Made by a program: the position numbers and the translations under genes
Shown here: piece by piece, positions 1,440 through 63,351 of the stretch
Layout of the letters: the number at the start of each line of letters is the position of its first letter
How positions within the stretch are numbered: position 1 is the first letter of the stretch
DNA from: an uncultured Pelagibacteraceae bacterium
GTDB taxonomy: Bacteria; Pseudomonadota; Alphaproteobacteria; Pelagibacterales; Pelagibacteraceae
DNA length: 64,000 nt
Assembly: GCA_902595125.1 (NCBI GenBank)
Contig: CACJOY010000005.1
Span: forward strand, 2,433 to 66,432
Direction: 5' to 3'
The notes under the pieces: generated by a model
The model's database searches: none
What the model saw: only the letters and a program-made list of their open reading frames with translations
Told to the model about the DNA's origin: nothing

Positions 1440-3509
1440 TTTAAAGTATATAAAAAAGAAATTGAAGTAGCAGGAAAAAAAATAAGTTTAGAGACAGGTA
1501 AAGTAGCAAGACAGGCAGATGGAGCAATAATAGCAACTAGTGGTGAAACAGTTATTTTAGCAACAGTCGTAGGAGCAAAGAAGGTAAATCCAGACATGGA
1601 TTATTTTCCACTCTCTGTAAATTACCAAGAAAAATATTACGCTGGTGGAAAAATTCCTGGTGGTTATTTTAAAAGAGAAGCAAGACCAACTGAAAGCGAA
1701 ACCCTAATATCAAGATTAATTGATAGGCCAATAAGACCTTTATTTCCTGATGAATTCAAAAATGAGGTACAGTTATTACCAACTGTAATTTCATATGACA
1801 AAGAAAGCCAACCAGATATTTTAGCTATTACTGCCTCATCGGCAGCACTCGCAATTTCTGGTATGCCTTTTATGGGACCTATAGGTGCGTCTAGAGTAGG
1901 ATTTGTTGACGGTAAGTACATTCTTAATCCATCAAAATCTGAATTAGAAAATTCCAGATTAGATTTAGTTGTAGCAGGCACCAAAGATGCCGTGCTTATG
2001 GTTGAGTCTGAAGCAAATGGTTTGACTGAGGAAGAAATGTTAAATGCAGTTAAATTTGGTCATGAGGGTTTTGTTCCAGTGATACAAATGATTGAAGAAC
2101 TTGCTAAAGAATGTCGAAAGCCTGAATGGTCTGTTGAGAAAAAAGACTTGTCGGAGGTTAAGAAAAAACTCGAGGCAACATTTACTGACGATCTTAAAAA
2201 GGCATTTGCAACAAAAGATAAACAAGATAGATCAAACCAAATTTCAGACATTACTGATAAAGCTAAAAAACTTTATGAAGAAGATGAAAACTATACTGAT
2301 CTTGATGTAAACAGCCAATTAAAAAGTTTAGAAAAATCTATCGTAAGAACTGACATCCTCAAGAATAAAAATAGAATTGATGGCAGAGGTTTGTCTGATG
2401 TAAGAGCTATTTCATGTGAAGTTGGAGTTTTACCAAGAACTCATGGCTCTGCATTATTTACTAGAGGTGAAACTCAAGCAATAGTAGTTACTACTTTAGG
2501 CACATCTGATGATGAGCAAAGACTAGAAAGCTTAGATGGTCAAAACAGAGAAAGATTTATGCTTCACTATAATTTTCCTCCCTTCTCAGTTGGTGAAACT
2601 GGAAGAATTGGAACCGGAAGACGTGAGATTGGCCATGGTAAATTAGCTTGGAGAGCAATAAATTCCTCACTTCCTTCAAAAGAGTCTTTCCCGTATACTT
2701 TTAGAATAGTATCTGAAATTACTGAGTCTAATGGCTCTTCTTCAATGGCTACTGTTTGTGGGGCTTCTTTAGCATTAATGGATGCTGGAGTTCCAATTAA
2801 AGAGCCTGTCGCAGGTATTGCAATGGGTTTAATTAAAGAGGGTAATGATTTTAGTGTTCTATCAGATATTTTAGGTGATGAAGATCATTTAGGTGATATG
2901 GACTTCAAAGTTGCTGGAACTAAAGATGGAATTACTTCACTTCAAATGGATATCAAGATTACTGGTATTACTTTTGAAATCATGGAGCAGGCATTAAAAC
3001 AGGCTAAAGATGGAAGAATTCACATCTTAAGCGAAATGAATAAAGCATTATCAGCTTCAAGAGAAGATGTTGGCAAACACACTCCTAAAATGGAACAGGT
3101 GACTGTTGATAAAAAAGACATAGCAGCTGTAATTGGAAAAGGTGGAGCAACAATCAGAGAAATTGTTGAAAAATCAGGTGCAAAAGTTGATGTTAACGAT
3201 GAAGGAGTTGTAACAGTTGCTGCTCCAGATGAAGAGTCTAGAAATATCGCGATGCAAATGATCAAAGACATCACTGCAAAAGCTGAACTAAATAAAATTT
3301 ATTCAGGAAAAGTAATGAAGATAATGGAATTTGGTGCATTCGTTAATTTTTTAGGAAAGCAGGATGGACTTGTTCATATTTCTGAATTAGCAGATAAAAG
3401 AGTTGCTAAAGTTACTGATGTTGTCAAAGAAGGTGATGAAGTCAAAGTTAAAGTCATAGGTTTTGACAGAGGTAAAGTAAAACTTTCGATTAAACAGGCT
3501 GTAGTCTAA
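1437..3509 (+). CDS. pnp: Polyribonucleotide nucleotidyltransferase (PNPase)
   Basis: [61 protein letters not shown]; C-terminal KH and S1 domains. Confidence 0.99.
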
Positions 3510-3516
3510 TAAAATA

Positions 3517-4188
3517 ATGTTAGAAATTTTATATAATATTTATCAAAAAATTGCTTATGGAGATATAAATTACGCAATATTTTTATTAAACTATTTGATA
3601 TGTGCAATAAGTGGTTTTGCTATAATATTTTTTAATTCTTTTTATGGATTTACCTATTTTAGAGATAAGTTTCACATCTATTTAGGAATATTATTACCAA
3701 TCATTGGCTATACAATTACATTGATAATTGGATCTAATATTGCCCTAAGTCTTGGTATGATTGGTGCTTTGTCAATCATTCGTTTTAGAACACCAGTAAG
3801 GTCAAGCTATGAGTTAGTTATTTATTTTTTACTTTTAACTATTGGAATAACTGCATCTGTAGATACTATGGTTACTATAATTTTAACTATAGTTTCACTG
3901 TTAATTTTAGCTTTATTAAGTATAATTTTTAAAAAAAATATATTAGAGTTTTCAGGTAAAAAAAATTTAGAGACTTCAAAAATTACATTAAGTTTTTCCC
4001 TAAAAAATAACAATCAAAATATTAATGAGCTAATTTCAGAAAATAAAAGTATCAACGTATCGATTAAAAAAGATGGAAATTTCTACTTAATAAGCGGTAC
4101 AATTGAATTTCTGAATATTTCGAGATTAGAAAATTTTATAAAAAAGAACGAGGAGAAACTCTTGTCCTATGAGATTTATAAAAATTAG
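3517..4188 (+). CDS. DUF4956-family integral membrane protein
   Basis: Several hydrophobic helices and the family signature SNIALSLGMIGALSIIRFRTPVR..YELV.YFLLLTIGI, recognised from memory of the family; soluble C-terminal tail. Confidence 0.8.
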   Translation: MLEILYNIYQKIAYGDINYAIFLLNYLICAISGFAIIFFNSFYGFTYFRDKFHIYLGILLPIIGYTITLIIGSNIALSLGMIGALSIIRFRTPVRSSYELVIYFLLLTIGITASVDTMVTIILTIVSLLILALLSIIFKKNILEFSGKKNLETSKITLSFSLKNNNQNINELISENKSINVSIKKDGNFYLISGTIEFLNISRLENFIKKNEEKLLSYEIYKN

Positions 4189-6316
4189 AAAAAATTTAAC
4201 AATTATTTTTTTCTTCCTTTTTTTTAATTCTTTCGTTCATGCAGATATAAATTTTGCAACCTCAATACCTAAAGAATTTTATTTTAAACTTTCACCTAAA
4301 GATAGCAGTGGTTTTAATAAAAACTTATTCGAAGCGTTTGTAGACGGCGATACAAAAAGAAAAGACAATATTAAAAAAAAGTATAAAAAATGGTTTAAAG
4401 CTGAACTTTTTACCGATAAAAACAATCTTATCCAAACTAAAATTCGACTAATGGGAAATTGGAAGGATCATTTAAGACCGCCAATATCAAGTTTAAAGGT
4501 TAAGATTATTGATGATAATAGTGTGTCGGGCATGAGACGTTTTAGATTATTTTTACCAAGAACCAGAAATAACGATAATGAAATTTTTTTTACTACAATT
4601 TTAAGATATATAGGTTTTCCAAGTTATTATTCGTCGAATGTAGATGTAAAATTCAATGGAAAAATTTACAAAGCGATTTTACAAGAAGATGCGTCCAAAG
4701 AATTTCTTGAAAGAAATTTTATCCAAGAACTACCAATTTTAAAAATTGATGAGTATAATTATAACAAAGACGAAGAATCTTTAGAGTATTACAACAGTCA
4801 AAAAATAAAGAATTCCTACATAATAGAAAATAGAAAATTTCTCAAAAAAAATTATTCTGAGGAAATAGTTTCAAATGCAATATATTTAGCGAATTCAAAT
4901 ACTTTTAAAAATAGAGTACACAATAATGCCTTTTTCGAGTCTTTGATGTTGAAATATGCAAAACACGCATTACCAGAACATAATAGAAGATATATTTATG
5001 TACCATATACTAATACTTTTATTCCTCTCTATTATGATGGTAATGTAAATTTTCCTATTTTGGAGGAAAAAAAAAATTGTAAGATTTTAAACTCTTTAAT
5101 CTCTAAATTTGAAAATTTTAAGAATGAGTATTACGTTTTAAGTAAAAAAAACTTATCAAAAAAAATGGAGTGTATTGCTGTTGAAATATTAAATTCATAC
5201 GGGGAAATGCACAAAGAGGGAAAACTTTTTCAAGAAAATCAAATTAATGAAGAAATTGAATTTAGCAAAAATTTTTTACTATTAACAAAAAAAATTAAAG
5301 ATTTTATAAATAATAATGAACCCATTTTAAGTATTGAGAATAAAAGTCACGGATATAGCTACTCATTTATGTATAATAAAAAATTTTATAAGTGTTTTTT
5401 GAAATTTAATGTCGATGATGTTTTGGGGTGTGTAGAGCTATCAAAAAAAGATTATGATAAAATATTGTCTAGGGGACAAAAGCTTAAAAAAAATAGTACA
5501 TCGATCAAATTAGCAAATATAAATATAGGTAATTTAGATTATTTTGATAATGTAAGGTTTTTAAAATTTGATAAAGATAAAGAAAATATTGACTATAATA
5601 TTAATAAAAAATTTATTTATATATTAAATGTTGAAGAAAATATAAAACCAAAAAAAATTACGGTAAAATTTCAAAATTTAGATTCAAAATTAATTATTAC
5701 AGGAGATCTTAGTAATCATGAGATCATTTTGGAAAACGAGATAGATATTGCAAATCTTAATTTTTTACCAGGAAATGATATTAATTATTTAAACGGTTGT
5801 ACATCTATTATAAGTGCAAAATTGTCTAATACTAAGATATATGCAAGTAATTTTTATTGTGAAGATGCTTTGAATATTATTAAATCTGAAGGAAACATAG
5901 ATAATATTGAAATTAAAGACTCATTGTTTGATGCAGTTGATTTTGATTTTTCAGATCTAAATATTTCAAATATAAAAATAAAAAAAGCTGGCAATGATTG
6001 TCTAGATTTATCTTTTGGTAATTACCAAGTAAAAAAAGGAGAATTTTTAGAATGTCATGACAAAGGCGTATCATTAGGTGAGAAATCAAAAGGAGATTTT
6101 GATTATATAAAAATTTTAGACTCAAAATATGGGCTTGTTTCAAAAGATAGTAGCATAGCAAATATTTTTAAATTATCAGGAAAAAATATTTCAAAATTTT
6201 GTTTAAGTGCATATAAAAAAAAACAAGAATTTGGTGGAGGAAAAATAAATTTTACAAATGTGAAATGTAATAAAGAATTCTATAATGACGAATTTAGCAT
6301 AATAACAAGAAATTAA
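4169..6316 (+). CDS. Secreted CotH-kinase-like protein with C-terminal right-handed beta-helix
   Basis: Signal-peptide-like N-terminus (..FFFLFFNSFVHA-D). KIRLMG.WKDH..SSLKVK..GMRRFRL..PRTR..NE..V.FNG..LQE...KEFLE and HNRRY.Y.P...PLYYDG resemble CotH-type kinase motifs. C-terminus has beta-helix-like repeats (EDALNII, DAVDFDFS, NDCLDLSFG, DKGVSLGE). Confidence 0.62.
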   Translation: MRFIKIRKNLTIIFFFLFFNSFVHADINFATSIPKEFYFKLSPKDSSGFNKNLFEAFVDGDTKRKDNIKKKYKKWFKAELFTDKNNLIQTKIRLMGNWKDHLRPPISSLKVKIIDDNSVSGMRRFRLFLPRTRNNDNEIFFTTILRYIGFPSYYSSNVDVKFNGKIYKAILQEDASKEFLERNFIQELPILKIDEYNYNKDEESLEYYNSQKIKNSYIIENRKFLKKNYSEEIVSNAIYLANSNTFKNRVHNNAFFESLMLKYAKHALPEHNRRYIYVPYTNTFIPLYYDGNVNFPILEEKKNCKILNSLISKFENFKNEYYVLSKKNLSKKMECIAVEILNSYGEMHKEGKLFQENQINEEIEFSKNFLLLTKKIKDFINNNEPILSIENKSHGYSYSFMYNKKFYKCFLKFNVDDVLGCVELSKKDYDKILSRGQKLKKNSTSIKLANINIGNLDYFDNVRFLKFDKDKENIDYNINKKFIYILNVEENIKPKKITVKFQNLDSKLIITGDLSNHEIILENEIDIANLNFLPGNDINYLNGCTSIISAKLSNTKIYASNFYCEDALNIIKSEGNIDNIEIKDSLFDAVDFDFSDLNISNIKIKKAGNDCLDLSFGNYQVKKGEFLECHDKGVSLGEKSKGDFDYIKILDSKYGLVSKDSSIANIFKLSGKNISKFCLSAYKKKQEFGGGKINFTNVKCNKEFYNDEFSIITRN

Positions 6317-6909
6317 TGAAGAGATATGAAATAAAATTTGATGTTACTGGATATGATTTAACAAATCTTATAACTGAATTACAAATGATTTATCTTTATC
6401 CTCAAAGAAAAATAATTTCAACTTATTATGATACTATATATTTAAAATATTTTAATGATAGTGAAGAAGGGTTATTGCCTAGAAAAAAAGTTAGGGTTAG
6501 AAATTATGAAAATGACAAAAATTTGAATTTAGAAATTAAAGAAACAGAGATAGATTTTCGAAAAAAATTAGTATTAAGTAATATAGATGATAAAAAAGTA
6601 AATGATCTATTAATGAAAAATCACAAATATGATGAAATAGTTTCACCTAAATTGAGAGTTATTTACAACAGAAAATACTTTAAATGCAAGTATGGAAGAA
6701 TTACATATGATTTTAATATTAATTATTTTGATTTAATGTTAGGAAATTTTAATCGAATTTTTTCGCAAAAAAAAATATTAGAACTTAAAAATACAGATTT
6801 AAAACTTAAAGATGAATTTATTAAAAATTTTTCTTTAAAAAATGTAAGATTTTCAAAATATTGTGATGGCATAAGTTCTTTTAAAGATTTTAAAAAAAAA
6901 CAAGCTTGA
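6316..6909 (+). CDS. VTC-domain (polyphosphate polymerase-like, CYTH/TTM tunnel fold) protein
   Basis: RYEIKF, STYYDT, RKKVRVRNY, LEIKE, RITYD, ILELK and RFSKY motifs match the VTC/CYTH-like family; TAATG overlap with the upstream gene. Confidence 0.82.
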   Translation: MKRYEIKFDVTGYDLTNLITELQMIYLYPQRKIISTYYDTIYLKYFNDSEEGLLPRKKVRVRNYENDKNLNLEIKETEIDFRKKLVLSNIDDKKVNDLLMKNHKYDEIVSPKLRVIYNRKYFKCKYGRITYDFNINYFDLMLGNFNRIFSQKKILELKNTDLKLKDEFIKNFSLKNVRFSKYCDGISSFKDFKKKQA

Positions 6910-17304: not shown

Positions 17305-18008
17305 TAAATTTTCCATCCACTATGTATTGAAACTATCCCGCCAGATAAATTTCTATAACTACATTTTTTAAAACCACTATCCATCATTAATGAAATTAAT
17401 TCATCTTGATTAAGAAAATTATTTATACTTTTGATAAGATATTCGTAAGGCTCTTTTTCTCCTACAACTAATTTTCCTATTGAGGGTATAATTTTGGAAT
17501 AATTTTTATAGATAAAATTTAAACCAGAATTATCTACTTTAGAAAATTCAAGGCATAAAAAACGACCACCTGGTTTTAGCACTCTATAAGCCTCTGACAG
17601 TACTTTTTTTAAATTTTTTGTATTTCTTAATCCAAAGCTTATTGAATAAAAATCAAACGAGCCTTTTGAAATTGGAAGACTTTCAGCGCTAGAAATAATC
17701 CAATTTAGCTGTTTGAAATCTTTCAATTTTTCTTTACCTTTTTTAATCATTCCTTGGTTTGGATCTGCGCAAGTAACTTCTGAGGATTTGTTAACATATT
17801 TTAAAAAAAGTTTTGCTATATCGCCTGTACCACATGCCACATCTATTAATTTTTGATTTTTTGAAGCATTCATCATGTTTATTAAATTTTTCTTCCATAA
17901 ACGGTGAACCCCAAGAGACATAAAATCATTCATCAAATCATATTGGTCATAAACTTGATTAAAGACATTTTGTACTAGTCCTTTTTTATTTTGTAGATAT
18001 TGTTGCAT
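17304..18008 (-). CDS. ubiE: Ubiquinone/menaquinone C-methyltransferase
   Basis: YDLMNDFMSLGVHRLWK, DVACGTGD, SFGLRN, RVLKPGGRF.CLEFS. Confidence 0.96.
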   Translation of the reverse strand: MQQYLQNKKGLVQNVFNQVYDQYDLMNDFMSLGVHRLWKKNLINMMNASKNQKLIDVACGTGDIAKLFLKYVNKSSEVTCADPNQGMIKKGKEKLKDFKQLNWIISSAESLPISKGSFDFYSISFGLRNTKNLKKVLSEAYRVLKPGGRFLCLEFSKVDNSGLNFIYKNYSKIIPSIGKLVVGEKEPYEYLIKSINNFLNQDELISLMMDSGFKKCSYRNLSGGIVSIHSGWKI

Positions 18009-18040
18009 AAAATTAAATTATATATTGAATATAGTATCAA

Positions 18041-18904
18041 ATGCCAGAATTACCAGAAGTAGAAATAGTTAGACGGTCGTTAGAAAAAAAGATTAAACAA
18101 AAAAAAGTAATAAAAGTGTTAGTTAGAAATAGAAATTTAAGGTTTAAGATACCGTTAAATTTTTCAAATTTCTTAAAAAATCAAAAAATAATTAAAGTAG
18201 AAAGAATTTCAAAATATTTAATTTTATATTTATCAAAAAAAGGATATTGCGTTTTACATCTCGGAATGTCTGGAACAATCCATATTATTGAAAATAAAAA
18301 AAAAAAAATGTTAACTAATACGAGTTTTTATAGCTCACCTTTATTACCAAAAAAACACAATCACTTAGAAATTATATTTAAAAATTTAAAAGTTGTTTAT
18401 AATGATCCACGAAGATTTGGATTTTTTCAAATAATAAGAAATAAAGATTTATTAATTAAAAAATTTAGTCGTCTTGGTCCCGAACCATTCAATCCAAAGT
18501 TTAATGAAAATTATGTTATTAATTATTTAAAAAAAAAAGAAAAAAAAATTAAAAATTTTTTATTAGATCAAAATTTTGTATCTGGAATTGGTAATATTTA
18601 TGCAAGTGAAATCTTGTTTTTGAGCAAGATTAATCCTAATAAAAAAGCAGGTCTTGTGAATAAAATAGAATGTAAAGAAATCATTAAAAATTCAAAAAAA
18701 GTTCTTTCTGATGCAATAAATAAAGGAGGCTCAAGTATAAGAGATTTTAAAAATATTTCAGGTAAAGAAGGAAATTTTCAAAAAAATTTTAAAGTTTATC
18801 AAAGAGAAGGTTTAGCTTGTAAAAGATTGTTTTGTACTGGATTTATACAAAAAAAAATTATTTCTAATAGATCCACATTCTTTTGTAATAATTGCCAAAA
18901 ATAA
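18041..18904 (+). CDS. mutM: Formamidopyrimidine-DNA glycosylase
   Basis: MPELPEVE, HLGMSG, DPRRFG, GIGNIYASE and a C-terminal zinc finger. Confidence 0.98.
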   Translation: MPELPEVEIVRRSLEKKIKQKKVIKVLVRNRNLRFKIPLNFSNFLKNQKIIKVERISKYLILYLSKKGYCVLHLGMSGTIHIIENKKKKMLTNTSFYSSPLLPKKHNHLEIIFKNLKVVYNDPRRFGFFQIIRNKDLLIKKFSRLGPEPFNPKFNENYVINYLKKKEKKIKNFLLDQNFVSGIGNIYASEILFLSKINPNKKAGLVNKIECKEIIKNSKKVLSDAINKGGSSIRDFKNISGKEGNFQKNFKVYQREGLACKRLFCTGFIQKKIISNRSTFFCNNCQK

Positions 18905-18916
18905 TAAATTATTTGA

Positions 18917-18945
18917 TTGACCAATATAAATTCTGCAGTTATACC
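18917..18945 (+). promoter_or_regulatory. Putative sigma70 promoter of rpsT
   Basis: TTGACC-N17-TATACC ending 9 nt before the ATG at 18955. Confidence 0.55.
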
Positions 18946-18954
18946 CCTGCGCGT

Positions 18955-19215
18955 ATGGCAAATACTAAATCAGCAATTAAAAGAATTCGAAGAATATCAA
19001 AACAGACTGCTGTTAATAAAGCTAGAAAAAGTAGATATAAGAATGCACTAAAGAAAATGAACTTGCTGATTGAAAATAAAAAAAAATCAGATGCTCTAAA
19101 GTTCTTACCTAAGTTGAATTCTGAACTAACAAAGATTGCAAAGACAGGAATCATTAAAAGACAAAACGCTTCAAGAAATGTCTCAAGAATTACTAAAAAG
19201 ATTGCATTAATATAA
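18955..19215 (+). CDS. rpsT: 30S ribosomal protein S20
   Basis: MANTKSAIKRIR...NKARKSR...ASRNVSRI. True start is the internal ATG at 18955, not 18892. Confidence 0.96.
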   Translation: MANTKSAIKRIRRISKQTAVNKARKSRYKNALKKMNLLIENKKKSDALKFLPKLNSELTKIAKTGIIKRQNASRNVSRITKKIALI

Positions 19216-19440
19216 GTTAAATACTTCTGGTTGATTCAACTTAAAGCATACGCATCATATATGAATCATAAATCTTAATTTACAATATTTAGACTTAGTA
19301 AATTTTAGTTTATTTTATTTCAATCATAAATTTTATTTATTTTTTAATACATAAAAAAAATTTTTGTCAAAGAATTTTTGAAAAAAAAAAAAATACACAA
19401 TCATAGATTTTATTTTTTTTTGATTATCACAATTTATTTG

Positions 19441-19469
19441 TTGCAAAACTTTCATTAAGGTTCTATCTC
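19441..19469 (+). promoter_or_regulatory. Putative dnaA promoter
   Basis: TTGCAA-N17-TATCTC, 15 nt before the ATG. Confidence 0.45.
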
Positions 19470-19484
19470 AAGTTTCCCCTAAAA

Positions 19485-20894
19485 ATGAATAATTCTTATA
19501 AAAATAAAAAATTAAACGCTAATGAGTTAGATTGGAATTTAATCCAGAATGATTTGCGGAATAACTTAGGAAAAGATATTTATGAAAGTTGGCTAAAAAA
19601 AATAAGTTTTGTAGAAGAATTAAATAATTATCTAATATTATCTGTACCAACAAGATTTATAAGGGATTGGATTACTTCTAGGTACTTAGACCAAATTTTA
19701 CAATTAATAAAAAATTATAAGAAGGATTTGATAAGAATAGAATTTAAAATTGATGAAAAAATTGACAACAAAGAAATCAATATTAAGGAATTTAATAAAA
19801 AAGAAAGTGTAGAAAATATTTCTTTTATAAAAGATTCTTATCTTCAGTATAATCGTATAGATCCAAATAAAAGGTTTGACAACTTTATCATTGGATCAAG
19901 TAATAAATTAGCTTATGAAGCTTCTTTAAAAGTTTCAGAAAATATTTCTCATTATAATCCACTTTATATTTATGGAGGTGTGGGAATGGGAAAAACACAT
20001 TTATTAAATTCTATTGGTTTTGAATTGAAAAAAAATAATAAAGTAATGTTTATTTCTGCAGAACGTTTTATGTATCAATTTGTAAAATCAATTAAATCAA
20101 ACGAAATGGTTAAATTTAAAGAGTATTTCAGAAATACAGACGTTTTATTAATTGACGACATACAGTTTATGAACGGAAAAGAAGCAATGCAAGAGGAGTT
20201 TTTTCATACTTTTAATGCATTAATTGATAAAGGATCACAAATAATTCTTTCTGCTGATAGAGCACCAAATAAACTGTCTCGTATTCAAGAAAGAATTAAA
20301 TCTAGATTTTCTGGTGGCCTAGTTGTTGATATTCAGAAACCAGATTATGACTTAAGAAAAAAAATTGTTGAAAAAAAAACTGACGAATTAAGCAGCTTGT
20401 ATCCTGACAAATTAAAAATTTCGAAAGAAATTCAGGATTTTATTAGCACTGAAATCTCAGCAAGCGTTAGAGAGCTCACAGGTGCAATCAATAGGATAGT
20501 TTCTTTTTCTAGAATTTATAATAAAATTCCAAATTTAGCTGAAACAAAAATAGTTCTAAAAGACTTATTAAATCTCTCAGAAAATAAAGTTACAATCGAT
20601 TTAATCCAAACTTTGGTTTGTAAATATTTTAAAATAAGTAAAAATGAAATGCTATCATCACGTAGATCAAGATATTTGGTTAGACCACGACAGACTGCTA
20701 TCTATTTAACTAAAATCTTAACATCAAAATCACTGCCTGAAATTGGAAGAGAATTCTCCAATAGGGATCATACCACAATAATACATTCCGTAAAAACCAT
20801 TGAAAAACTCAAGGAAAATGATTCCTCAATGGTTGATAGTATAAACAAGTTAAAAAATCAGATCTTATATAATAATAAAGAAAATGAAATTTAA
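19485..20894 (+). CDS. dnaA: Chromosomal replication initiator DnaA
   Basis: NPLYIYGGVGMGKTHLL, LLIDDIQF, QEEFFHTFN, RPRQ.AIYL, RDHTTIIH. Confidence 0.99.
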   Translation: MNNSYKNKKLNANELDWNLIQNDLRNNLGKDIYESWLKKISFVEELNNYLILSVPTRFIRDWITSRYLDQILQLIKNYKKDLIRIEFKIDEKIDNKEINIKEFNKKESVENISFIKDSYLQYNRIDPNKRFDNFIIGSSNKLAYEASLKVSENISHYNPLYIYGGVGMGKTHLLNSIGFELKKNNKVMFISAERFMYQFVKSIKSNEMVKFKEYFRNTDVLLIDDIQFMNGKEAMQEEFFHTFNALIDKGSQIILSADRAPNKLSRIQERIKSRFSGGLVVDIQKPDYDLRKKIVEKKTDELSSLYPDKLKISKEIQDFISTEISASVRELTGAINRIVSFSRIYNKIPNLAETKIVLKDLLNLSENKVTIDLIQTLVCKYFKISKNEMLSSRRSRYLVRPRQTAIYLTKILTSKSLPEIGREFSNRDHTTIIHSVKTIEKLKENDSSMVDSINKLKNQILYNNKENEI

Positions 20895-32855: not shown

Positions 32856-35336
32856 TTAATTAAAATTTAAGTTTTTTAAAATCCCAAAAGGACTTTCTTT
32901 ATTGTTTTTTTTATTAAATACTTTTTTATTTATTTTTTTTGGTGAATACTTAAAAAATATTTCGTCTTTTTTTTCAGAAATTTTATAATTCATATTTTTT
33001 AAAACTTTTTTAAAACTTTCCTTATTACAACCAAGTAAATTTAACATCTCTGGTATCATTTTAATTTCTTTGTCTTTTTTTGGATTCGAATTGATAATTT
33101 GTACAAACAATCTTTCTAAAATGTCAATTCTCACATAGTAATTATCAAATTTTTCAAAACCACATAACAACATAAAATTTTTATTTTTGAAATTACTATC
33201 TTTCAAAAAATTTAGTCCAAAAGTTGGTGGTTTTAAATCAAAGTTTTTTTGTTGGAAGTTTTTCCAAAGTAATGTCCTTAACGAAACAGCCTCAGGTTTG
33301 ATAAGTCTGTGTAAAAAAACGTGATATCTTCCAAACTTTACACCCAAATCTCTTAAAATTTTTCTTTCATTTTGTTCGAGATTTTTAAGATAATCTGAAA
33401 CCTGTTCTCTTTTGAGAACGCCATTATTTTCATATAGTTGATAAGCTAAAGCTTTAATCGATGAATTCTTTTCTTTTAGATTTTTTAAATCTAAAAGACT
33501 CTTTAAAATTATCTCTATCTTATTTTTAATCCATTTTTCTAAAAAAATTATTAGTTTTTGTTTTTGTTCTTGTTCTAAAATATCGTCAATTATTAATTCA
33601 AGGTTTGGATTTAAATAGTCTTTACCAGGTGTTAATTTTCCAATTGCAAACTTGTTCCAATATATTTTAAAGTCATCTTTTAATTCAACTAAACCAGTGT
33701 TGATAATAATTTGAATTCTTCTTTCAAGTTCTGGACCAACAGTTTGTCTTGCTGCTTTTTTAAGAGATTTGATATCAGTTTCTAAAGCACCTTTTTTTAG
33801 ATCAAGTTCTAATTTAAGTCCGTTGATTTTCCCTATAAATTGATTGTCAATCATTACCTCATTATTTTCTAAAATCTTTGTGTTAAATTCCATATCTTGT
33901 TTTAAACCCCTAGCTAAAACGCTTGCTCTTTTATCAATAAAGGTTTTTGTAAGTTCTTCATGCAGTCTATCTGAGAGTTTATCTTCTAATAATTTTGTTT
34001 TTTCAATCCAATAATTTTGATTTTCTATCCAGTTATTTTTATTTGAAACATAAGACCAAGTTCGCACATTTGCAATTCTATTTGATAAAGAATCTACATT
34101 ACCCTCTAATTTATCTAATTTTACTAGCTGTAATCGCATAAAATCATCACTTATTTTACTTTTTTCACTATTTAAAAATTTAAATACATTTCCAATTACA
34201 TCGTAATGGTTTCCGTATGTTTTCTTTACAAAGTCAGGGATTTGACAACATTCCCATAGTAAACTCAGTTTATGTTTATCAAATTTGATATTTTCTAAAT
34301 TTTTATCCCTTAAAAAAAATTTAAGTGCTTTTTCATCTTCGCATTCATTTATTTTTCTTAACCAATCTTTGTCTGGTCGTTCATCTAAAGATTTTATTAA
34401 TGCTGATGGATTGTTAAAATTTAAATTTGTATTTCGCCAATAAAGAAATTGAATTTCCTCAAATTTATGATTTTCAAGTAGATCAACGTCTTCGGCATTA
34501 ATTTCTTTACATTGTCCTGTAATTCCAAAACTTCCATCATTTAAGTATCTCCCCGCTCTTCCAGCAATCTGTCCAATCTCAGACAAATTCAATTTTCTTA
34601 GTTTTCTTCCATCAAATTTTTTTAGGTTTGAAAAATAGACATGACTCAGGTCCATATTTATACCCATTCCAATAGCATCTGTTGCAACCAAAAAATCAAC
34701 ATCACCTGATTGATATAATTCAACTTGGGCATTACGTGTTTTGGGACTTAAAGATCCCATGACAATTGCTGCACCACCTTTTTGTCTTCTTATCAGCTCT
34801 GCTATCGCATAAACTTCCTCAGCCGAGAAAGCGATTATTGCTGTTTTACGGTCTATTCTAGAAATTTTTTTGTGACCAGCATAGGAAAGTTTTGATAATC
34901 TATTCCTATTTATAAACTCTATATCATCATCTAATTTAGAGATTATATTTTTAATCGTATTTGATCCCATGAACATCGTTAATTTTGTTCCTCTCATATT
35001 AATTAATCTATCAGTAAATATGTGTCCACGTTCATGATCGGCGCACATCTGTATTTCATCAACACCTACAAAATCAAGATGTTTATCTATTGGCATAGAC
35101 TCAACAGTACATAAGAAATACTTTGCATTAGGTGGAATAATTTTTTCCTCTCCAGTGATCAGAGCAACATTATCTATACTTATTTGTTTAACAACCTTAT
35201 CATAAACTTCCCGTGCTAGTAACCTAAGAGGGAAACCAATCATCCCACTGTCAAAAGAAAGCATTGTTTCTATGGCCAGATGAGTTTTTCCAGTATTAGT
35301 TGGTCCAAGAACAGCAGTAATTTTATTTTTAATCAT
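32856..35336 (-). CDS. Suv3/MgpS-like SF2 helicase
   Basis: LGPTNTGKT, PLRLLAREVY, VDEIQM, ATDAIGMG.N, QIAGRAGR; upstream of fdxA-carD as in other Alphaproteobacteria. Confidence 0.9.
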   Translation of the reverse strand: MIKNKITAVLGPTNTGKTHLAIETMLSFDSGMIGFPLRLLAREVYDKVVKQISIDNVALITGEEKIIPPNAKYFLCTVESMPIDKHLDFVGVDEIQMCADHERGHIFTDRLINMRGTKLTMFMGSNTIKNIISKLDDDIEFINRNRLSKLSYAGHKKISRIDRKTAIIAFSAEEVYAIAELIRRQKGGAAIVMGSLSPKTRNAQVELYQSGDVDFLVATDAIGMGINMDLSHVYFSNLKKFDGRKLRKLNLSEIGQIAGRAGRYLNDGSFGITGQCKEINAEDVDLLENHKFEEIQFLYWRNTNLNFNNPSALIKSLDERPDKDWLRKINECEDEKALKFFLRDKNLENIKFDKHKLSLLWECCQIPDFVKKTYGNHYDVIGNVFKFLNSEKSKISDDFMRLQLVKLDKLEGNVDSLSNRIANVRTWSYVSNKNNWIENQNYWIEKTKLLEDKLSDRLHEELTKTFIDKRASVLARGLKQDMEFNTKILENNEVMIDNQFIGKINGLKLELDLKKGALETDIKSLKKAARQTVGPELERRIQIIINTGLVELKDDFKIYWNKFAIGKLTPGKDYLNPNLELIIDDILEQEQKQKLIIFLEKWIKNKIEIILKSLLDLKNLKEKNSSIKALAYQLYENNGVLKREQVSDYLKNLEQNERKILRDLGVKFGRYHVFLHRLIKPEAVSLRTLLWKNFQQKNFDLKPPTFGLNFLKDSNFKNKNFMLLCGFEKFDNYYVRIDILERLFVQIINSNPKKDKEIKMIPEMLNLLGCNKESFKKVLKNMNYKISEKKDEIFFKYSPKKINKKVFNKKNNKESPFGILKNLNFN

Positions 35337-37603: not shown

Positions 37604-40600
37604 ATGAGTAAAAAATTATTTGTTCCTGACATAGGTGAGTTTGAGAATGTTGAAGTAATTGAACTTTTAGTAAAAGAGGGCCAAGAAATTAAAAAAAACG
37701 ATCCTGTAGTAACAATTGAAAGTGACAAGTCAAGTGTAGAAATTCCATCTTCAATAGAGGGAAAAATAGAAAAAATTGAGGTTAAAGTAGGAGATAAAGT
37801 TTCTAAAGATGATTTGCTTTTGACTATCTCAAATAATGAAATTGTTTCTTCTGAAGTAGAGGACGTTCCAAAAAATACAGAGAATTTAATTCAAGAAGCT
37901 GAAACATCTTTAAAAAAATCCCAAGAACAGCAATTTTCAAAATCTGAAAATGAAATTTCAAGTAAAAAATTTGAAAAAAAAAAAGAAGAACCAAGTAGTT
38001 CTCAAAAAAAAACTACCAAAATTCAATTACTAAATAAAGATGATATTGATCCACAAGAAACAAGCGAATGGCTAGACTCCTTGTCATCAGTCATTGAAAA
38101 GGACGGTAATAAAAGAGCTCATTATTTAATTAAAGAGTTGATCAATAAAGCATATACAGCAGGAGCGAATATTCCATACACACAAAATACCCCATACATA
38201 AACACAATTCCAGTTAGTGAAGAGAAGAAGTCTAATGGAGATCAAAATATTGAGAGAAGAATAAGATCTTTGATAAGGTGGAATTCAGCTGCAATGGTGG
38301 TGAGAGCAAATAAAAAACATCCTGAACTTGGAGGACATATTGGAACATTTGCTTCAGCTGCAACACTTTATGATGTTGGAATGAATCATTTCTGGAGAGC
38401 AAAAAACAATAAGTTTGGAGGAGATTTGATTTATTTTCAAGGTCATAGTGCACCAGGAATGTATGCAAGAGCTTTTCTTGAGGGAAGGATGACTGAAAAA
38501 CAATTAGATAATTTTAGACAGGAAGTAAATCCTGGAGGGCTATCTTCTTATCCACATCCGTGGTTGATGCCAAACTTTTGGCAATTTCCGACAGTATCTA
38601 TGGGATTAGGTCCAATGTTGGCAATTTATCAAGCAAGATTTATGAAATATTTAATAAATAGAGGCTTAATAAAAGACGAGGGAAGAAAAGTTTGGGCATT
38701 TTTAGGAGATGGTGAAATGGACGAACCTGAGTCCTTAGGTGCGATTGGTTTAGCTGCAAGAGAAAAATTAGACAATTTAATATTTGTCATAAACTGTAAT
38801 TTACAGAGACTAGATGGCCCAGTTAGAGGTAATGGAAAAATAATTCAAGAACTAGAGGGAATTTTTAGGGGTGCAGGGTGGAATGTTATTAAAGTTATTT
38901 GGGGATCTTATTGGGACTCTTTACTACTCAATGATAGCACAGGACATTTAGTTAAAACTATGAACGAAACAGTTGATGGCGAATATCAGGCAATGAAAGC
39001 CAGAGATGGTGCCTATGTGAGGGAAAAGTTTTTTGGAAAATATCCAGAAACAAGAGAATTGGTATCAAGTCTATCTGATAAAGATATTTGGAGATTAAAC
39101 AGAGGTGGTCATGATCCTCATAAAGTCTTTGCTGCTTACGATAAGGCATCAAAAAATGTCGGCAGTCCTACTGTAATAATTGCAAAAACTATCAAAGGAT
39201 ATGGAATGGGAAAAAGTGGTGAAAGTGTAAATACAACACACCAAACTAAAAAATTAGATATTGAAGATTTAATGTATTACAGAGACAGATTTGATGTACC
39301 ACTTACAGATGAACAAGTGAGAAATATTGAATATTATAAACCTGATCAAAATTCAGCTGAGATAAAATATATTAAAGAGAGAAGGCTTCAACTTGGTGGG
39401 TTTATTCCTGAGAGAACCACCTACGCAAAACCTATTAAAACCCCTCCTAAAAATATTTTTGATAATATGAAAGAGTCTACTGGCAAAAAGGAAATGTCAA
39501 CAACAATGGCTTTAGTCAGAATGTTAACAAACCTTCTTAGAGATAAAAATGTTGCACCAAGACTTGTTCCAATTATTCCTGATGAAGCAAGAACTTTTGG
39601 TATGGAGGGATTTTTTCAAAAAGTTGGGATTTACGCCCATGAGGGACAGAAATATGAACCAGAAGACTCTGCTCAATTAAGTTCTTATAGAGAAGAAAAA
39701 AGTGGTCAAGTTCTGGAAGAAGGTATAACAGAAGCAGGTGCTATGTCGTCATGGATTGCTGCTGGAACGTCATACACTAATCATGATATTGAAATGATCC
39801 CAATTTACTTATTTTATTCAATGTTTGGTTTCCAAAGGATAGGAGATTTTGCATGGGCAGGTGCTGACAGTCAATCACGTGGTTTTTTAATTGGAGCGAC
39901 TGCTGGAAGAACTACTCTCGCGGGTGAAGGATTACAACATCAAGACGGCCATAGCCATTTATTAGCTTCAACAATTCCAAATTGTATTTCTTATGATCCA
40001 ACTTTTCATTACGAGTTAGCTGTAATTTTTAGAGAGGGATTGAGAAGAATGCATGAAAAAAAGGAAAATATTTTTTATTATATTACAACAATGAATGAAA
40101 AATATCCTCATCCTGAAATTCCTAAAGATAAAAAATATGAAGAAGGAATTTTAAAAGGCATGTATAAAATTAAAGAATTTAATAATCATAAAAAAACAAA
40201 GTTACAATTTCTTGGATCTGGTTCAATTTTAAGGGAAATGATATCTGGAGCAGAAATATTGCAAAAGGAATACAAAATAGACAGTGAGATTTGGAGTGTG
40301 ACCAGTTTTAATGAACTTAGAAAAGATGGATTAGAAATTCAAAGATATAATCTTCTTAACCCCAACAAAGAACAAAAAAAATCATATGTTGAAAAATGTC
40401 TTGGCGGAACTGAAGGTCCAATATTAGCAGCATCAGACTATATGAGAATGAACTCAGATCAAATTCATCCTTATATAAATAAAAGTTTTTATTCTTTAGG
40501 AACTGATGGATTTGGAAGAAGCGATACAAGAAAAAATTTAAGAAAATTTTTTGAGGTTGATAAAGAGCATATAGTTGCGTATGGACTAAGCGTTTTAGCA

Positions 40601-40690
40601 AAAGAGCAACTTTTAGCTTCAAAGTATGCTACTGAGGCTATGAAAAAATATAAAATCGATAGTGAAAAACCAATGCCAACTAAAATGTAA
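37604..40690 (+). CDS. aceE: Pyruvate dehydrogenase E1 (homodimeric AceE type) with N-terminal lipoyl domain
   Basis: N-terminus VPDIGEFENVEV...IESDKSSVEIPS (lipoyl-Lys motif), charged linker, then DIDPQET.EW, GGHIGTFAS, PTVSMGLGP, GDGEMDEPES, GEGLQHQD. Confidence 0.96.
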   Translation: MSKKLFVPDIGEFENVEVIELLVKEGQEIKKNDPVVTIESDKSSVEIPSSIEGKIEKIEVKVGDKVSKDDLLLTISNNEIVSSEVEDVPKNTENLIQEAETSLKKSQEQQFSKSENEISSKKFEKKKEEPSSSQKKTTKIQLLNKDDIDPQETSEWLDSLSSVIEKDGNKRAHYLIKELINKAYTAGANIPYTQNTPYINTIPVSEEKKSNGDQNIERRIRSLIRWNSAAMVVRANKKHPELGGHIGTFASAATLYDVGMNHFWRAKNNKFGGDLIYFQGHSAPGMYARAFLEGRMTEKQLDNFRQEVNPGGLSSYPHPWLMPNFWQFPTVSMGLGPMLAIYQARFMKYLINRGLIKDEGRKVWAFLGDGEMDEPESLGAIGLAAREKLDNLIFVINCNLQRLDGPVRGNGKIIQELEGIFRGAGWNVIKVIWGSYWDSLLLNDSTGHLVKTMNETVDGEYQAMKARDGAYVREKFFGKYPETRELVSSLSDKDIWRLNRGGHDPHKVFAAYDKASKNVGSPTVIIAKTIKGYGMGKSGESVNTTHQTKKLDIEDLMYYRDRFDVPLTDEQVRNIEYYKPDQNSAEIKYIKERRLQLGGFIPERTTYAKPIKTPPKNIFDNMKESTGKKEMSTTMALVRMLTNLLRDKNVAPRLVPIIPDEARTFGMEGFFQKVGIYAHEGQKYEPEDSAQLSSYREEKSGQVLEEGITEAGAMSSWIAAGTSYTNHDIEMIPIYLFYSMFGFQRIGDFAWAGADSQSRGFLIGATAGRTTLAGEGLQHQDGHSHLLASTIPNCISYDPTFHYELAVIFREGLRRMHEKKENIFYYITTMNEKYPHPEIPKDKKYEEGILKGMYKIKEFNNHKKTKLQFLGSGSILREMISGAEILQKEYKIDSEIWSVTSFNELRKDGLEIQRYNLLNPNKEQKKSYVEKCLGGTEGPILAASDYMRMNSDQIHPYINKSFYSLGTDGFGRSDTRKNLRKFFEVDKEHIVAYGLSVLAKEQLLASKYATEAMKKYKIDSEKPMPTKM

Positions 40691-61695: not shown

Positions 61696-63351
61696 TTATA
61701 AGCAATTTTTTTTAACGTGAAAAATATATAAATTATTATTACTAGCTAATTTCTTTCTACTTAAACATTTATTTAGCCATTCAAATTCTTTAATTTCATC
61801 ATTTTTAAAGCCTGCTGTATTATCAATGATTATTTGCGTTACATTATTATCAACAATCTTACTTTTAAAAAAGTTTTCAAAATTCTTTCTTAATTTATGA
61901 TTTTTCGATGGATAAGTTGCATTAACATGCCAATATTTTACTGGCGATAGATCTTTTTTATCAAGAATTAAATTATAAATTTGATAATCAGTAATAAGTA
62001 TATATTTTTCATCAGAGTCTAGGCTTTTTAAGTATTCAAAAGTGTCAAATATAAGTTTTTTTTCAATCTCCGAATTCTTAAAATAAACAGTTTTCCATTT
62101 AAGATATTTCAATTTATTATCAATAATCTCGGCGTTAAAACTCTCAGCAATTTCGCCTTTTTTTAAATCATCCCATGCTCTTATTTTTACATATTTCTCA
62201 AAGTAAAATGATGTAGATATAAATAAATAAATTAAAACATAGTAACGTAAAGATATTTTTTTTTTTAAAAAAAAAGCAATAAGTATAAATAAATATATAA
62301 ATATATATAAAATTTCGTATCTCAAAATTCGATAAAAGCAATACGTAATCATAATGAACAAAATATATTTTATAATTTTTGAATTAGACTTATCGATAGA
62401 ATGAAAGTAATAAAACAAAGCACAGAAAATTGGTATTAATGAAAATGTTATTGGTTGATTATTTGAATGTATTTCATAAATACTTATTATTAAAGATAAT
62501 CCAAATATAAAAAATATGTTGTGAATTTTTTTTGATAAAAAACTACTATATAAAGAAGGAATAATTAAAAATAAAAGAAAAAATATTTTTGAAATTTTGT
62601 CATAAAAGTAACCATAACTTAAATTTGAAAATCTGTTTTCACCAAGAATAGTTGCGAAAATAAAGTATTGATCAATGATATTTTGTAAAGAAACATTATT
62701 TGATAAAAAAAATAAGACATAAAAAGAAATCGCAAACAAAGAAGATAAAATCAATATTATAAAATTTCTCTTATTAACTGGAGAAAACATTCTAGAGAAA
62801 TAAATGATTATGTAAAAAAAAATAAAATATGTTGTTGGTACCTGTTTTATAAAAAAAGTTGTCAAAAAAATAAAAACACCGATAAATAGAAGATAATTTT
62901 TATTTTCTTTAAGACCTATAATTAAAATAAAAAAAGAAACTATGCTCAGAGCAAGAGAATTATGCTCAACAGTTGGGTTACCTGTAGGTGGAAACATTAA
63001 CAATCCAGAGCAAACAGAGTAAAAGAAAGAATCAATTGTATTAAGATCTAACTTTTTTAAAAAAATGAATACAGAAATTGAGTAAATACAATTTAACAAA
63101 GACGCATGAATGATTAGACTTTGCCAATTCGAACCAAAAATTTTGTAAATCGTAGATTGCCAAATATCTAAAATTGGCCCAGTTATTGAATAATAATCTC
63201 TAAAAGGAAAGTCACCTTTTAAAATCCTATGACCAGAGTTAAAATTTTGAAGATCATCCAATGGCATTAAACCTTGATGACCAAAATAAAAGTTAACGAA
63301 AAAAGAAATAAATAAGATAAAAATTATTGATGATAATTCTATTAATTTCAT
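61696..63351 (-). CDS. Large polytopic membrane protein, probable GT-C fold glycosyltransferase
   Basis: First external loop with PLDD and G..P..DY....GP, about 12 hydrophobic segments, KQVP motif, soluble C-terminal domain. Confidence 0.6.
   Translation of the reverse strand: MKLIELSSIIFILFISFFVNFYFGHQGLMPLDDLQNFNSGHRILKGDFPFRDYYSITGPILDIWQSTIYKIFGSNWQSLIIHASLLNCIYSISVFIFLKKLDLNTIDSFFYSVCSGLLMFPPTGNPTVEHNSLALSIVSFFILIIGLKENKNYLLFIGVFIFLTTFFIKQVPTTYFIFFYIIIYFSRMFSPVNKRNFIILILSSLFAISFYVLFFLSNNVSLQNIIDQYFIFATILGENRFSNLSYGYFYDKISKIFFLLFLIIPSLYSSFLSKKIHNIFFIFGLSLIISIYEIHSNNQPITFSLIPIFCALFYYFHSIDKSNSKIIKYILFIMITYCFYRILRYEILYIFIYLFILIAFFLKKKISLRYYVLIYLFISTSFYFEKYVKIRAWDDLKKGEIAESFNAEIIDNKLKYLKWKTVYFKNSEIEKKLIFDTFEYLKSLDSDEKYILITDYQIYNLILDKKDLSPVKYWHVNATYPSKNHKLRKNFENFFKSKIVDNNVTQIIIDNTAGFKNDEIKEFEWLNKCLSRKKLASNNNLYIFHVKKNCL

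Follow-up and report, generated by a model that had tools for sequence, protein, structure and literature searches.

A conserved DUF4956, CotH-like and VTC gene trio in Pelagibacteraceae and other marine bacteria: a candidate polyphosphate-powered envelope module

In this work we have analyzed a stretch of 64,000 nt from an uncultured Pelagibacteraceae bacterium (GenBank assembly GCA_902595125.1, contig CACJOY010000005.1, positions 2,433 to 66,432 of the forward strand), called here the window, which carries at 3517-6909 three adjacent genes encoding a DUF4956 membrane protein, a large exported protein with a CotH-like kinase fold and a beta-helix, and a soluble VTC-domain protein. An earlier note, made from the sequence letters, had proposed that the VTC protein makes polyphosphate (polyP) or another phosphodonor, that DUF4956 is the membrane conduit or partner, and that the CotH-like enzyme transfers phosphate to a surface polymer. 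The three genes form a module that is real, conserved, selected and widespread; what it does is weighed below.

The three genes and their products

The coordinates put forward in the earlier note are exact: open reading frames ORF1, ORF2 and ORF3 follow one another on the + strand, and both overlaps that it described are present when the sequence is read directly. A Shine-Dalgarno-like GAGGAG site lies at 4150-4155, upstream of the start of the large gene. The features of the trio are as follows.

3517..4188, + strand: ORF1, DUF4956 membrane protein, 223 amino acids
4169..6316, + strand: ORF2, large exported CotH-like/beta-helix protein, 715 amino acids
6316..6909, + strand: ORF3, VTC-domain (triphosphate-tunnel) protein, soluble, cytoplasmic, 197 amino acids (PF09359; profile against the PDB; no hydrophobic segment)
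4169..4188, + strand: 20-nt overlap of the DUF4956 stop and the large-gene start (read in the sequence)
6314..6318, + strand: TAATG stop/start overlap of the large gene and the VTC gene (read in the sequence)
4169..4243, + strand: Sec-type signal peptide, residues 1-25, MRFIKIRKNLTIIFFFLFFNSFVHA with cleavage before D, no lipobox (read from the sequence)
4256..5488, + strand: CotH-like protein-kinase-fold domain, residues ~30-440 (profile, Foldseek, conservation in 228 members)
4964..4966, + strand: His266 codon, at the position of the CotH catalytic Asp (MAFFT alignment)
5036..5038, + strand: Asp290 codon of the YYDG motif, at the position of the CotH metal-binding Asp (alignments)
5786..6313, + strand: C-terminal right-handed parallel beta-helix, residues ~540-715 (AlphaFold2 model, pLDDT >90; Foldseek; conservation)

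ORF3 passes the Pfam threshold for VTC (PF09359; E 1.8e-13, 51.1 bits against a cutoff of 23), its residues 3-189 covering positions 2-234 of the 235-position profile, and the same domain is carried by 50 of 50 VTC homologues, one of which also matches Pfam CYTH. A single-sequence search of the PDB with ORF3 gave no match at E <= 1; a profile built from 26 VTC sequences retrieved Vtc4 (3g3q, E 2.5e-6) and also Vtc2 and Vtc3. Invariant in the family are R3, E5, K7, R31, Y37, D39, E51, R56, K58, R60 and R62, followed by E73, K75, Y117, R119, R128, D132, E156, K158, S180 and K181. Residues R60, R62, K75, Y117 and R119 align with R264, R266, K281, Y359 and R361 of Vtc4, and R128, E156, K158, S180 and K181 with R373, E426, K428, S457 and K458 (numbering checked against full-length Vtc4, 8i6v). 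The earlier note had pointed to the tunnel motifs, basic and acidic, RYEIK, RKKVRVR, LEIK, ILELK and FSKY; every one of them is there, at columns that do not vary in the family. The tunnel residues of Vtc4 are said, in the 2009 work of Hothorn et al., to be functionally important in phosphate and metal binding. The N-terminal motif R3-x-E5-x-K7 is likewise invariant and lies inside the Pfam match; the HMMER alignment to the PDB chains begins only at residue 27. A hydrophobic segment was looked for in ORF3 and none was found.

ORF1 passes the gathering threshold of Pfam PF16316 (DUF4956; E 1.8e-10, 41.3 bits against a cutoff of 30.6), a domain annotated on nearly all of the homologues listed; the family search gave 950 homologues. 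Five hydrophobic helices are predicted, at approximately residues 19-43, 51-71, 73-90, 97-115 and 117-145, and the homologue alignment reveals a near-invariant family core, GSNIALSLGMIGALSI-RFRTPxR-YEL. In the AlphaFold2 (AF2) model (pLDDT, the predicted local distance difference test, 76) five helices precede residues 156-222, which form a C-terminal ACT-like domain of beta-alpha-beta-beta-alpha-beta order, and Foldseek with this model returned ACT domains only (E ~7e-3, probability 1.0). Because of the positive-inside rule, the arginine-rich loop (RFRTPxR) and the ACT-like domain are predicted to face the cytoplasm. A DUF4956 profile found no match among PDB sequences even at E <= 10.

The signal peptide of ORF2 has counterparts throughout its family, since a simple heuristic recognized a signal-peptide-like N-terminus in 194 of 219 members. 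Ten cysteines are present in ORF2; six of them, in the beta-helix, are conserved in at least 90% of members, which fits the expectation for an oxidising compartment. The localisation given in the earlier note (a membrane, a secreted and a cytoplasmic protein) was borne out by the five helices of ORF1, the signal peptide of ORF2 and the lack of a hydrophobic segment in ORF3. By these sequence features the module spans the inner membrane, with the VTC protein inside, DUF4956 in the membrane and the kinase-fold enzyme outside.

With the single ORF2 sequence neither Pfam nor NCBIfam gave a match; the gathering threshold of Pfam CotH (PF08757) was not reached, nothing appearing at E <= 0.1, and only 1 of 33 ORF2 relatives matched that domain. 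For ORF1 and ORF3, too, NCBIfam returned no useful match. A Paracoccaceae orthologue of the same CotH plus beta-helix architecture (locus L007) passes Pfam CotH with 37.7 bits against 23.8. Searched against the PDB, the 33-sequence family profile matched Bacillus cereus CotH (5jd9) with E 4.9e-4 over residues 76-297. The AF2 model of ORF2 is confident (pLDDT 89.3; pTM, the predicted template-modelling score, 0.89) and its best Foldseek matches are CotH structures (5jda, E 2e-7; 5jd9, E 4e-7; probability 1.0), with a template-modelling score of 0.52 normalised to the target. The kinase fold suggested earlier for the large protein is confirmed as the best match in both comparisons, and the call of a CotH-like domain joined to a beta-helix agrees between profile and structure searches, though Pfam and NCBIfam are blind to it. 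Among 228 members the kinase-fold domain conserves G96, D100, H101, S108, F125, R133, E138, E173, K177, E178 and E181, as well as H266, N272, R273, D290 and G291.

Bacillus CotH (5JD9/5JDA), the best profile and fold match to the N-terminal domain of ORF2, shares with it the G, H, S, E and FL motifs of the N-lobe and the metal-binding Asp. The Bacillus protein is made in the ATP-containing mother cell, whereas ORF2 is exported, adds a beta-rich middle region and the beta-helix, and lacks the Pfam CotH match. The chief departure concerns the active site: the catalytic Asp of CotH (D224 in B. cereus, D228 in B. subtilis) is replaced in ORF2 by an invariant His266, found in 227 of the 228 family members, the lone exception being a misaligned insertion. 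The metal-binding Asp (D247 in B. cereus, D251 in B. subtilis) is retained as Asp290, conserved in 97% of members with Glu in 5, and Asn272, aligned with the catalytic-loop Asn, is conserved in 89% with Asp in the others. The substitutions D228Q and D251A have each been reported to abolish the activity of B. subtilis CotH (PMC7821199). In the Paracoccaceae orthologue the motif SDHAVGVN keeps between His and Asn the spacing that CotH has between Asp and Asn, and the CotH of a Planococcus plasmid trio retains the canonical NID...WDFN, catalytic Asp included. A canonical CotH kinase identity was therefore rejected for ORF2, the catalytic-loop alignment showing His for Asp; of the CotH-like kinase named in the earlier note the CotH-type fold stands and the canonical active site does not. 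As judged from the alignment, the marine clade is a kinase-fold enzyme with His at the catalytic-base position, where His266 could act as base or as phosphoryl carrier, in the latter case perhaps by way of phospho-His266.

Within the large protein conservation is highest in the beta-helix, where some 17 residues, charged or polar, are all but invariant (E565, D566, N569, D588, D591, D593, D610, D613, S615, D631, K632, S635, E638, K659, D660, K684 and K685) and form Asp and Lys ladders on successive rungs. After the CotH structures, the Foldseek search with the ORF2 model matched its C-terminal 175 residues to CBA120 TSP2, PL3 pectate lyase and the AlgG/AlgE4 epimerases, and Pfam Beta_helix was matched weakly in ORF2 relatives. 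Right-handed beta-helix carbohydrate enzymes (PL3, AlgG/AlgE4, tailspike depolymerases) thus have the fold of ORF2 residues ~540-715, and the Ca2+-dependent lyases among beta-helix proteins have a similar Asp/Lys-rich face; the Foldseek E values are, however, only 0.01-0.4, and no family hidden Markov model (HMM) reaches threshold.

In three relatives (P0269, P0340 and P0417) the CotH-like/beta-helix protein ends in a complete family-I inorganic pyrophosphatase (E 1e-32 to 1e-34) bearing the DGDPLD signature, and all three start with signal peptides. From their sequences such fused members would be extracytoplasmic pyrophosphatases, which places pyrophosphate chemistry in the compartment of the kinase-fold enzyme. 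The fusions are a minority of the family (P0269 at L012:7001-9841, P0417 at L014:7001-9937, also P0340 and P0348). Just upstream of the trio in locus L012 (4845-6260) there is a second, shorter CotH-like paralogue with the N-terminal kinase-fold domain only (HMM positions 8-358) and no beta-helix.

Linkage, distribution and genomic setting

Eighty marine metagenome loci were fetched by means of the VTC protein alone (a 10-sequence alignment), and HMMs for DUF4956 and the CotH-like protein were then run over them. The CotH-like gene was adjacent to the VTC gene in 77 of 78 evaluable loci, the exception having only 104 nt upstream, and DUF4956 was present in all 43 loci that extended far enough. 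Chance adjacency was rejected on these counts, and the trio does recur elsewhere, as the earlier note had supposed. It was intact in every context retrieved individually: in two other SAR11-type settings (one with tenA/TauE, one in a NeuB/glycosyltransferase island), beside formyltransferase, PIG-L and GT1 genes in one locus, in Candidatus Pseudothioglobus singularis, in further metagenome contigs and, in the order VTC-DUF4956-CotH, in a Paracoccaceae metagenome-assembled genome (L007). Four of the fetched loci have another gene order, and the permutations DCV, DVC and CDV (D, DUF4956; C, CotH-like; V, VTC) keep all three genes.

The order DUF4956-VTC-CotH-like was seen in L033, L034 and L066, CotH-like-DUF4956-VTC in L063, and VTC-DUF4956-CotH in L007 and L095; in L061 the CotH-like gene lies on the opposite strand. 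The chromosomal site of the trio differs among SAR11-type contigs. The Gram-positive trio on the Planococcus maritimus plasmid NZ_CP059541.1 (L095:4470-12824) is arranged as hypothetical, polyP-polymerase-domain, DUF4956, CotH kinase family, 689-amino-acid hypothetical, HEAT repeat and glycosyltransferase genes, the layout of Clostridium perfringens NELoc-2.

When the large-protein profile was run against all 1.84 billion representatives, 9,514 clusters (counted at 50% identity) were obtained at E <= 0.001 and 4,509 at E <= 1e-30, and the best 150 clusters were all full-length matches. The family is mostly without a name and overwhelmingly marine. When compared with a second Pelagibacter genome, the ratio of nonsynonymous to synonymous substitution rates was 0.07 for DUF4956, 0.10 for the large protein and 0.08 for VTC, with 0.04 for pnp; all three trio genes are under purifying selection.

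The surroundings of the trio were assessed on 124 non-redundant ORFs flanking it in 18 long loci. They are dominated by NAD-dependent epimerases/dehydratases, GDP-mannose dehydratase (GDP_Man_Dehyd), UDP-glucose dehydrogenase (UDPG_MGDP_dh), GT1, GT2, Polysacc_synt_2, NeuB, nucleotidyl transferases and methyltransferases, to which single loci add Wzy_C, a Wzx-type flippase, Glycos_transf_4 and a polysaccharide deacetylase (Polysacc_deac_1). Of the surface polymer postulated in the earlier note, this much held up: related loci are flanked by polysaccharide-biosynthesis genes. The trio of the window itself lies in a core-genome region. No recognizable pel genes stand beside the trio in the window flanks or in the related marine loci.

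Genes for cotH, a polyP polymerase and DUF4956 have been described as a conserved accessory set, with roles unknown, of Gram-positive Pel loci (10.1101/768473; PMC12345266), so the recurrence without a demonstrated function that the earlier note had stated is confirmed in print. The same gene set occurs in C. perfringens NELoc-2 (PMC2879425, PMC11677781). In Streptococcus intermedius deletion of the DUF4956 gene or of cotH changes the amount of Pel and halves aggregation (PMC12345266). The sets of Streptococcus, Clostridium and Bifidobacterium (SIR_1592-1594; NELoc-2) consist of the same three families, adjacent, co-oriented and next to exopolysaccharide genes (10.1101/768473; PMC12345266; PMC2879425); as in the window, CotH is secreted and DUF4956 has transmembrane helices followed by an ACT-like domain. 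They differ in that the present host is a diderm alphaproteobacterium (Pelagibacter) whose trio has no pel neighbours, in the gene order, which is DUF4956-CotH-VTC in the window, and in the large protein, the Gram-positive CotH having the catalytic Asp and FN3 where that of the window has His and the beta-helix. The S. intermedius authors stated that the trio was not found outside Pel loci (PMC12345266); its presence in marine loci outside Pel contexts contradicts this.

In the window the trio lies between pnp and fabI, ~13 kb from dnaA. The pnp stop and the DUF4956 start are separated by 8 nt (window 3507-3517) and no terminator is predicted between the two genes, so the trio may ride on the rpsO-pnp transcript; the VTC gene ends 22 nt from the convergent fabI. 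In DNA so rich in AT (G+C ~29%) scans for promoters and terminators told little; promoter-like sites numbered 41, where 40.7 were expected. A Candidatus Pelagibacter ubique assembly matches the window closely with identical gene order (infB, rbfA, rpsO, pnp, trio, fabI, fabB, fabA, fur, katG). The G+C content is 23.5% at 4001-6000, over the large gene, against ~32% in the flanking housekeeping genes, which could reflect relaxed composition or foreign origin.

Further along the window core genes continue with dnaA (19485-20891) and then gltB, aceE, thrS, pheT and lepA. An AT-rich stretch (22.6% G+C over 18-20 kb) precedes dnaA, and the replication origin region is probably near it, at 18001-20891. 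The pyruvate dehydrogenase E1 gene at 37604-40687 (+) encodes an N-terminal biotin/lipoyl-attachment domain (residues 5-75), an unusual E1 fusion. An 826-amino-acid protein at 32859-35336 (-) combines an N-terminal Suv3-type DEXQ helicase domain with ~550 residues without an assigned domain, and a 551-amino-acid ORF at 61699-63351 (-), where the window is most AT-rich (21.4% G+C), has no Pfam match at E <= 1e-6.

Possible function of the module

We tentatively favour, at somewhat less than even chances, the view that the trio is one functional module acting on the cell envelope, with a surface glycan as its most likely target, and powered by polyP. The VTC protein would make polyP or another phosphoanhydride from ATP at the membrane, and a DUF4956 oligomer would pass it to the ATP-free periplasm. 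There the exported kinase-fold enzyme may take polyP as phosphoryl donor, possibly via phospho-His266, while the Asp/Lys ladder of the beta-helix would hold an invariant ligand, either polyP-metal or a glycan backbone. Leftover pyrophosphate would then be hydrolysed, in some relatives by the pyrophosphatase fused to the exported protein. In outline this is the mechanism of the earlier note, a plausible proposal that the present results motivate further. Such a scheme would account for the tight bond between a tunnel enzyme that uses ATP in the cytoplasm and a kinase-fold enzyme that is exported, for the external pyrophosphatase of some members, and for a beta-helix surface that stays invariant although the glycan loci differ.

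The eukaryotic VTC complex offers the nearest parallel. ORF3 belongs to its VTC-domain fold family and has kept the tunnel residues, basic and acidic, of Vtc4; in both systems an obligatory membrane partner is encoded alongside the enzyme, and the coupling of synthesis to translocation into an ATP-free compartment, proposed here for the trio, is the concept common to both. The differences are considerable: the catalytic domain of ORF3 is a separate protein of 197 amino acids without an SPX or transmembrane domain, the three-helix VTC1/DUF202 channel has in its place DUF4956 with five helices and an ACT-like domain, no structural similarity between the membrane parts was detected, and Vtc4 is a polymerase where ORF3 is polymerase-like by sequence. 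That the trio is the bacterial counterpart of this synthase-translocase, with polyP passing through a DUF4956 oligomer, a phospho-His relay enzyme phosphorylating or polyphosphorylating surface glycans and a pyrophosphatase clearing the end product, seems to us possible but doubtful.

Several points weigh against the polyP-powered module. On the enzyme side, Vtc4 K200 is the catalytic Lys of strand beta-1 that separates active Vtc4 from inactive Vtc2/3; the R-x-E-x-K motif of ORF3 probably includes its equivalent, the match of K7 to K200 following from the Pfam span only. The missing canonical Asp of ORF2 means that phosphotransfer is not assured. For DUF4956 as a conduit there is no structural evidence: its membrane part has no fold match in the PDB, Foldseek having reached the ACT-like tail only, and a likeness to the VTC channel, considered as a candidate, is unsupported by any PDB sequence or fold match. 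Its architecture, five helices and a cytoplasmic ACT-like domain, looks in the model like that of MgtC, and MgtC is a regulator (of F-ATPase and PhoR), not a channel. Proteins of the MgtC/SapB type likewise place several transmembrane helices before a cytoplasmic ACT-like domain, although Pfam MgtC was not matched by the ORF1 sequence at E <= 0.1, and MgtC is known for regulating the F-ATPase and PhoR, not for partnering a triphosphate tunnel metalloenzyme (TTM). As to the substrate, the dominance of glycan genes in the flanks is qualitative, without a matched control, and no glycan genes stand beside the trio in the window (pnp/fabI) or in the tenA/TauE context. In S. intermedius Pel rises in the DUF4956 mutant and falls in the cotH mutant, and deletion of the VTC gene has no reported phenotype (PMC12345266). 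The literature search brought no biochemical datum for bacterial VTC, DUF4956 or secreted CotH, and nothing relevant on bacterial VTC function or on SAR11 together with VTC/CotH.

A first rival explanation is a regulatory module, which we consider unlikely. The ACT-like domain of DUF4956 would sense a cytoplasmic metabolite, the VTC protein would be a triphosphatase or a TTM enzyme producing a small signal, and the pair would govern how active or how stable the exported CotH-like protein or the glycan synthases are, no phosphodonor crossing the membrane. The CYTH/TTM superfamily includes many hydrolases and cyclases, and the one VTC homologue that also matches Pfam CYTH agrees with such a role. 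The S. intermedius DUF4956 protein was termed MgtC-like by the authors, in line with its ACT-like domain, and the mutant pattern there (Pel up, Pel down and no VTC phenotype) also suits regulation (PMC12345266). A regulatory pair leaves unexplained, however, the full invariant set of Vtc4-type residues, the periplasmic pyrophosphatase fusions and the powering of the exported kinase-fold enzyme.

Still less likely, in our judgement, is that export of polyP is the end in itself, the chain serving in the periplasm or at the surface as cation buffer, pseudo-capsule or phosphorus store, and the CotH-like/beta-helix protein receiving, anchoring or trimming it without glycan phosphorylation. The VTC and topology evidence would serve this explanation as well as the favoured one, the pyrophosphatase fusions fit chain trimming, and the ladder, invariant while the flanking glycan loci vary, argues for an invariant ligand. 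The conserved kinase-fold motifs (H266, N272, D290, E173) suggest transfer chemistry instead, and the lasting association with glycan loci points to an organic acceptor. Improbable is scavenging in the reverse direction, a phosphorus acquisition for oligotrophic oceans in which the exported protein captures environmental polyP or pyrophosphate, DUF4956 imports it and VTC runs backwards (polyP + ADP to ATP) or hydrolyses it; the overwhelmingly marine family, the pyrophosphatase fusions and the charged ladder are compatible with this, but the same trio lies beside Pel loci in gut and oral Firmicutes (10.1101/768473) and beside a glycosyltransferase on the Planococcus plasmid, its neighbours are glycan genes and not pst/pho genes, and no outer-membrane uptake component is linked. 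The least probable explanation, an ordinary ATP-dependent Ser/Thr protein kinase of the Bacillus CotH type acting on secreted or envelope proteins with VTC and DUF4956 as loosely related neighbours, can point to the CotH fold, the retained metal-binding Asp and the canonical Asp of Gram-positive trio CotH, but has against it the change of catalytic Asp to His in all ~228 members, the export to a compartment without ATP and a VTC/DUF4956 linkage that is near-absolute and survives changes of gene order.

Since an uncharacterised accessory set of this kind has been described before, the trio is no categorical novelty. Measured against the literature searched, we believe it to be new that the trio occurs away from Pel loci, in SAR11 and numerous further marine diderms, that its family is of this size, that the active site has His for Asp, that the beta-helix is conserved and that a pyrophosphatase can be fused to the exported protein.

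To our knowledge, the absence of ATP outside the inner membrane poses an unsolved energy problem for bacterial extracytoplasmic kinases. We likewise know of no role for bacterial VTC-domain proteins, bacterial polyphosphate being ascribed to PPK enzymes. A Vtc4-like enzyme tied through an obligatory membrane partner to an exported kinase-fold enzyme offers a concrete and testable answer to both questions. If the polyP-powered reading is true, the module would represent a novel means of driving reactions outside the cytoplasm, one that SAR11, SUP05-type and roseobacter-type marine bacteria would share with Gram-positive biofilm loci, the latter having the canonical-Asp form. The module is carried by some of the most abundant bacteria of the ocean, where phosphorus is scarce and surface glycans shape the interactions with phages and grazers, and it also modulates the Pel-dependent aggregation of an opportunistic streptococcus.

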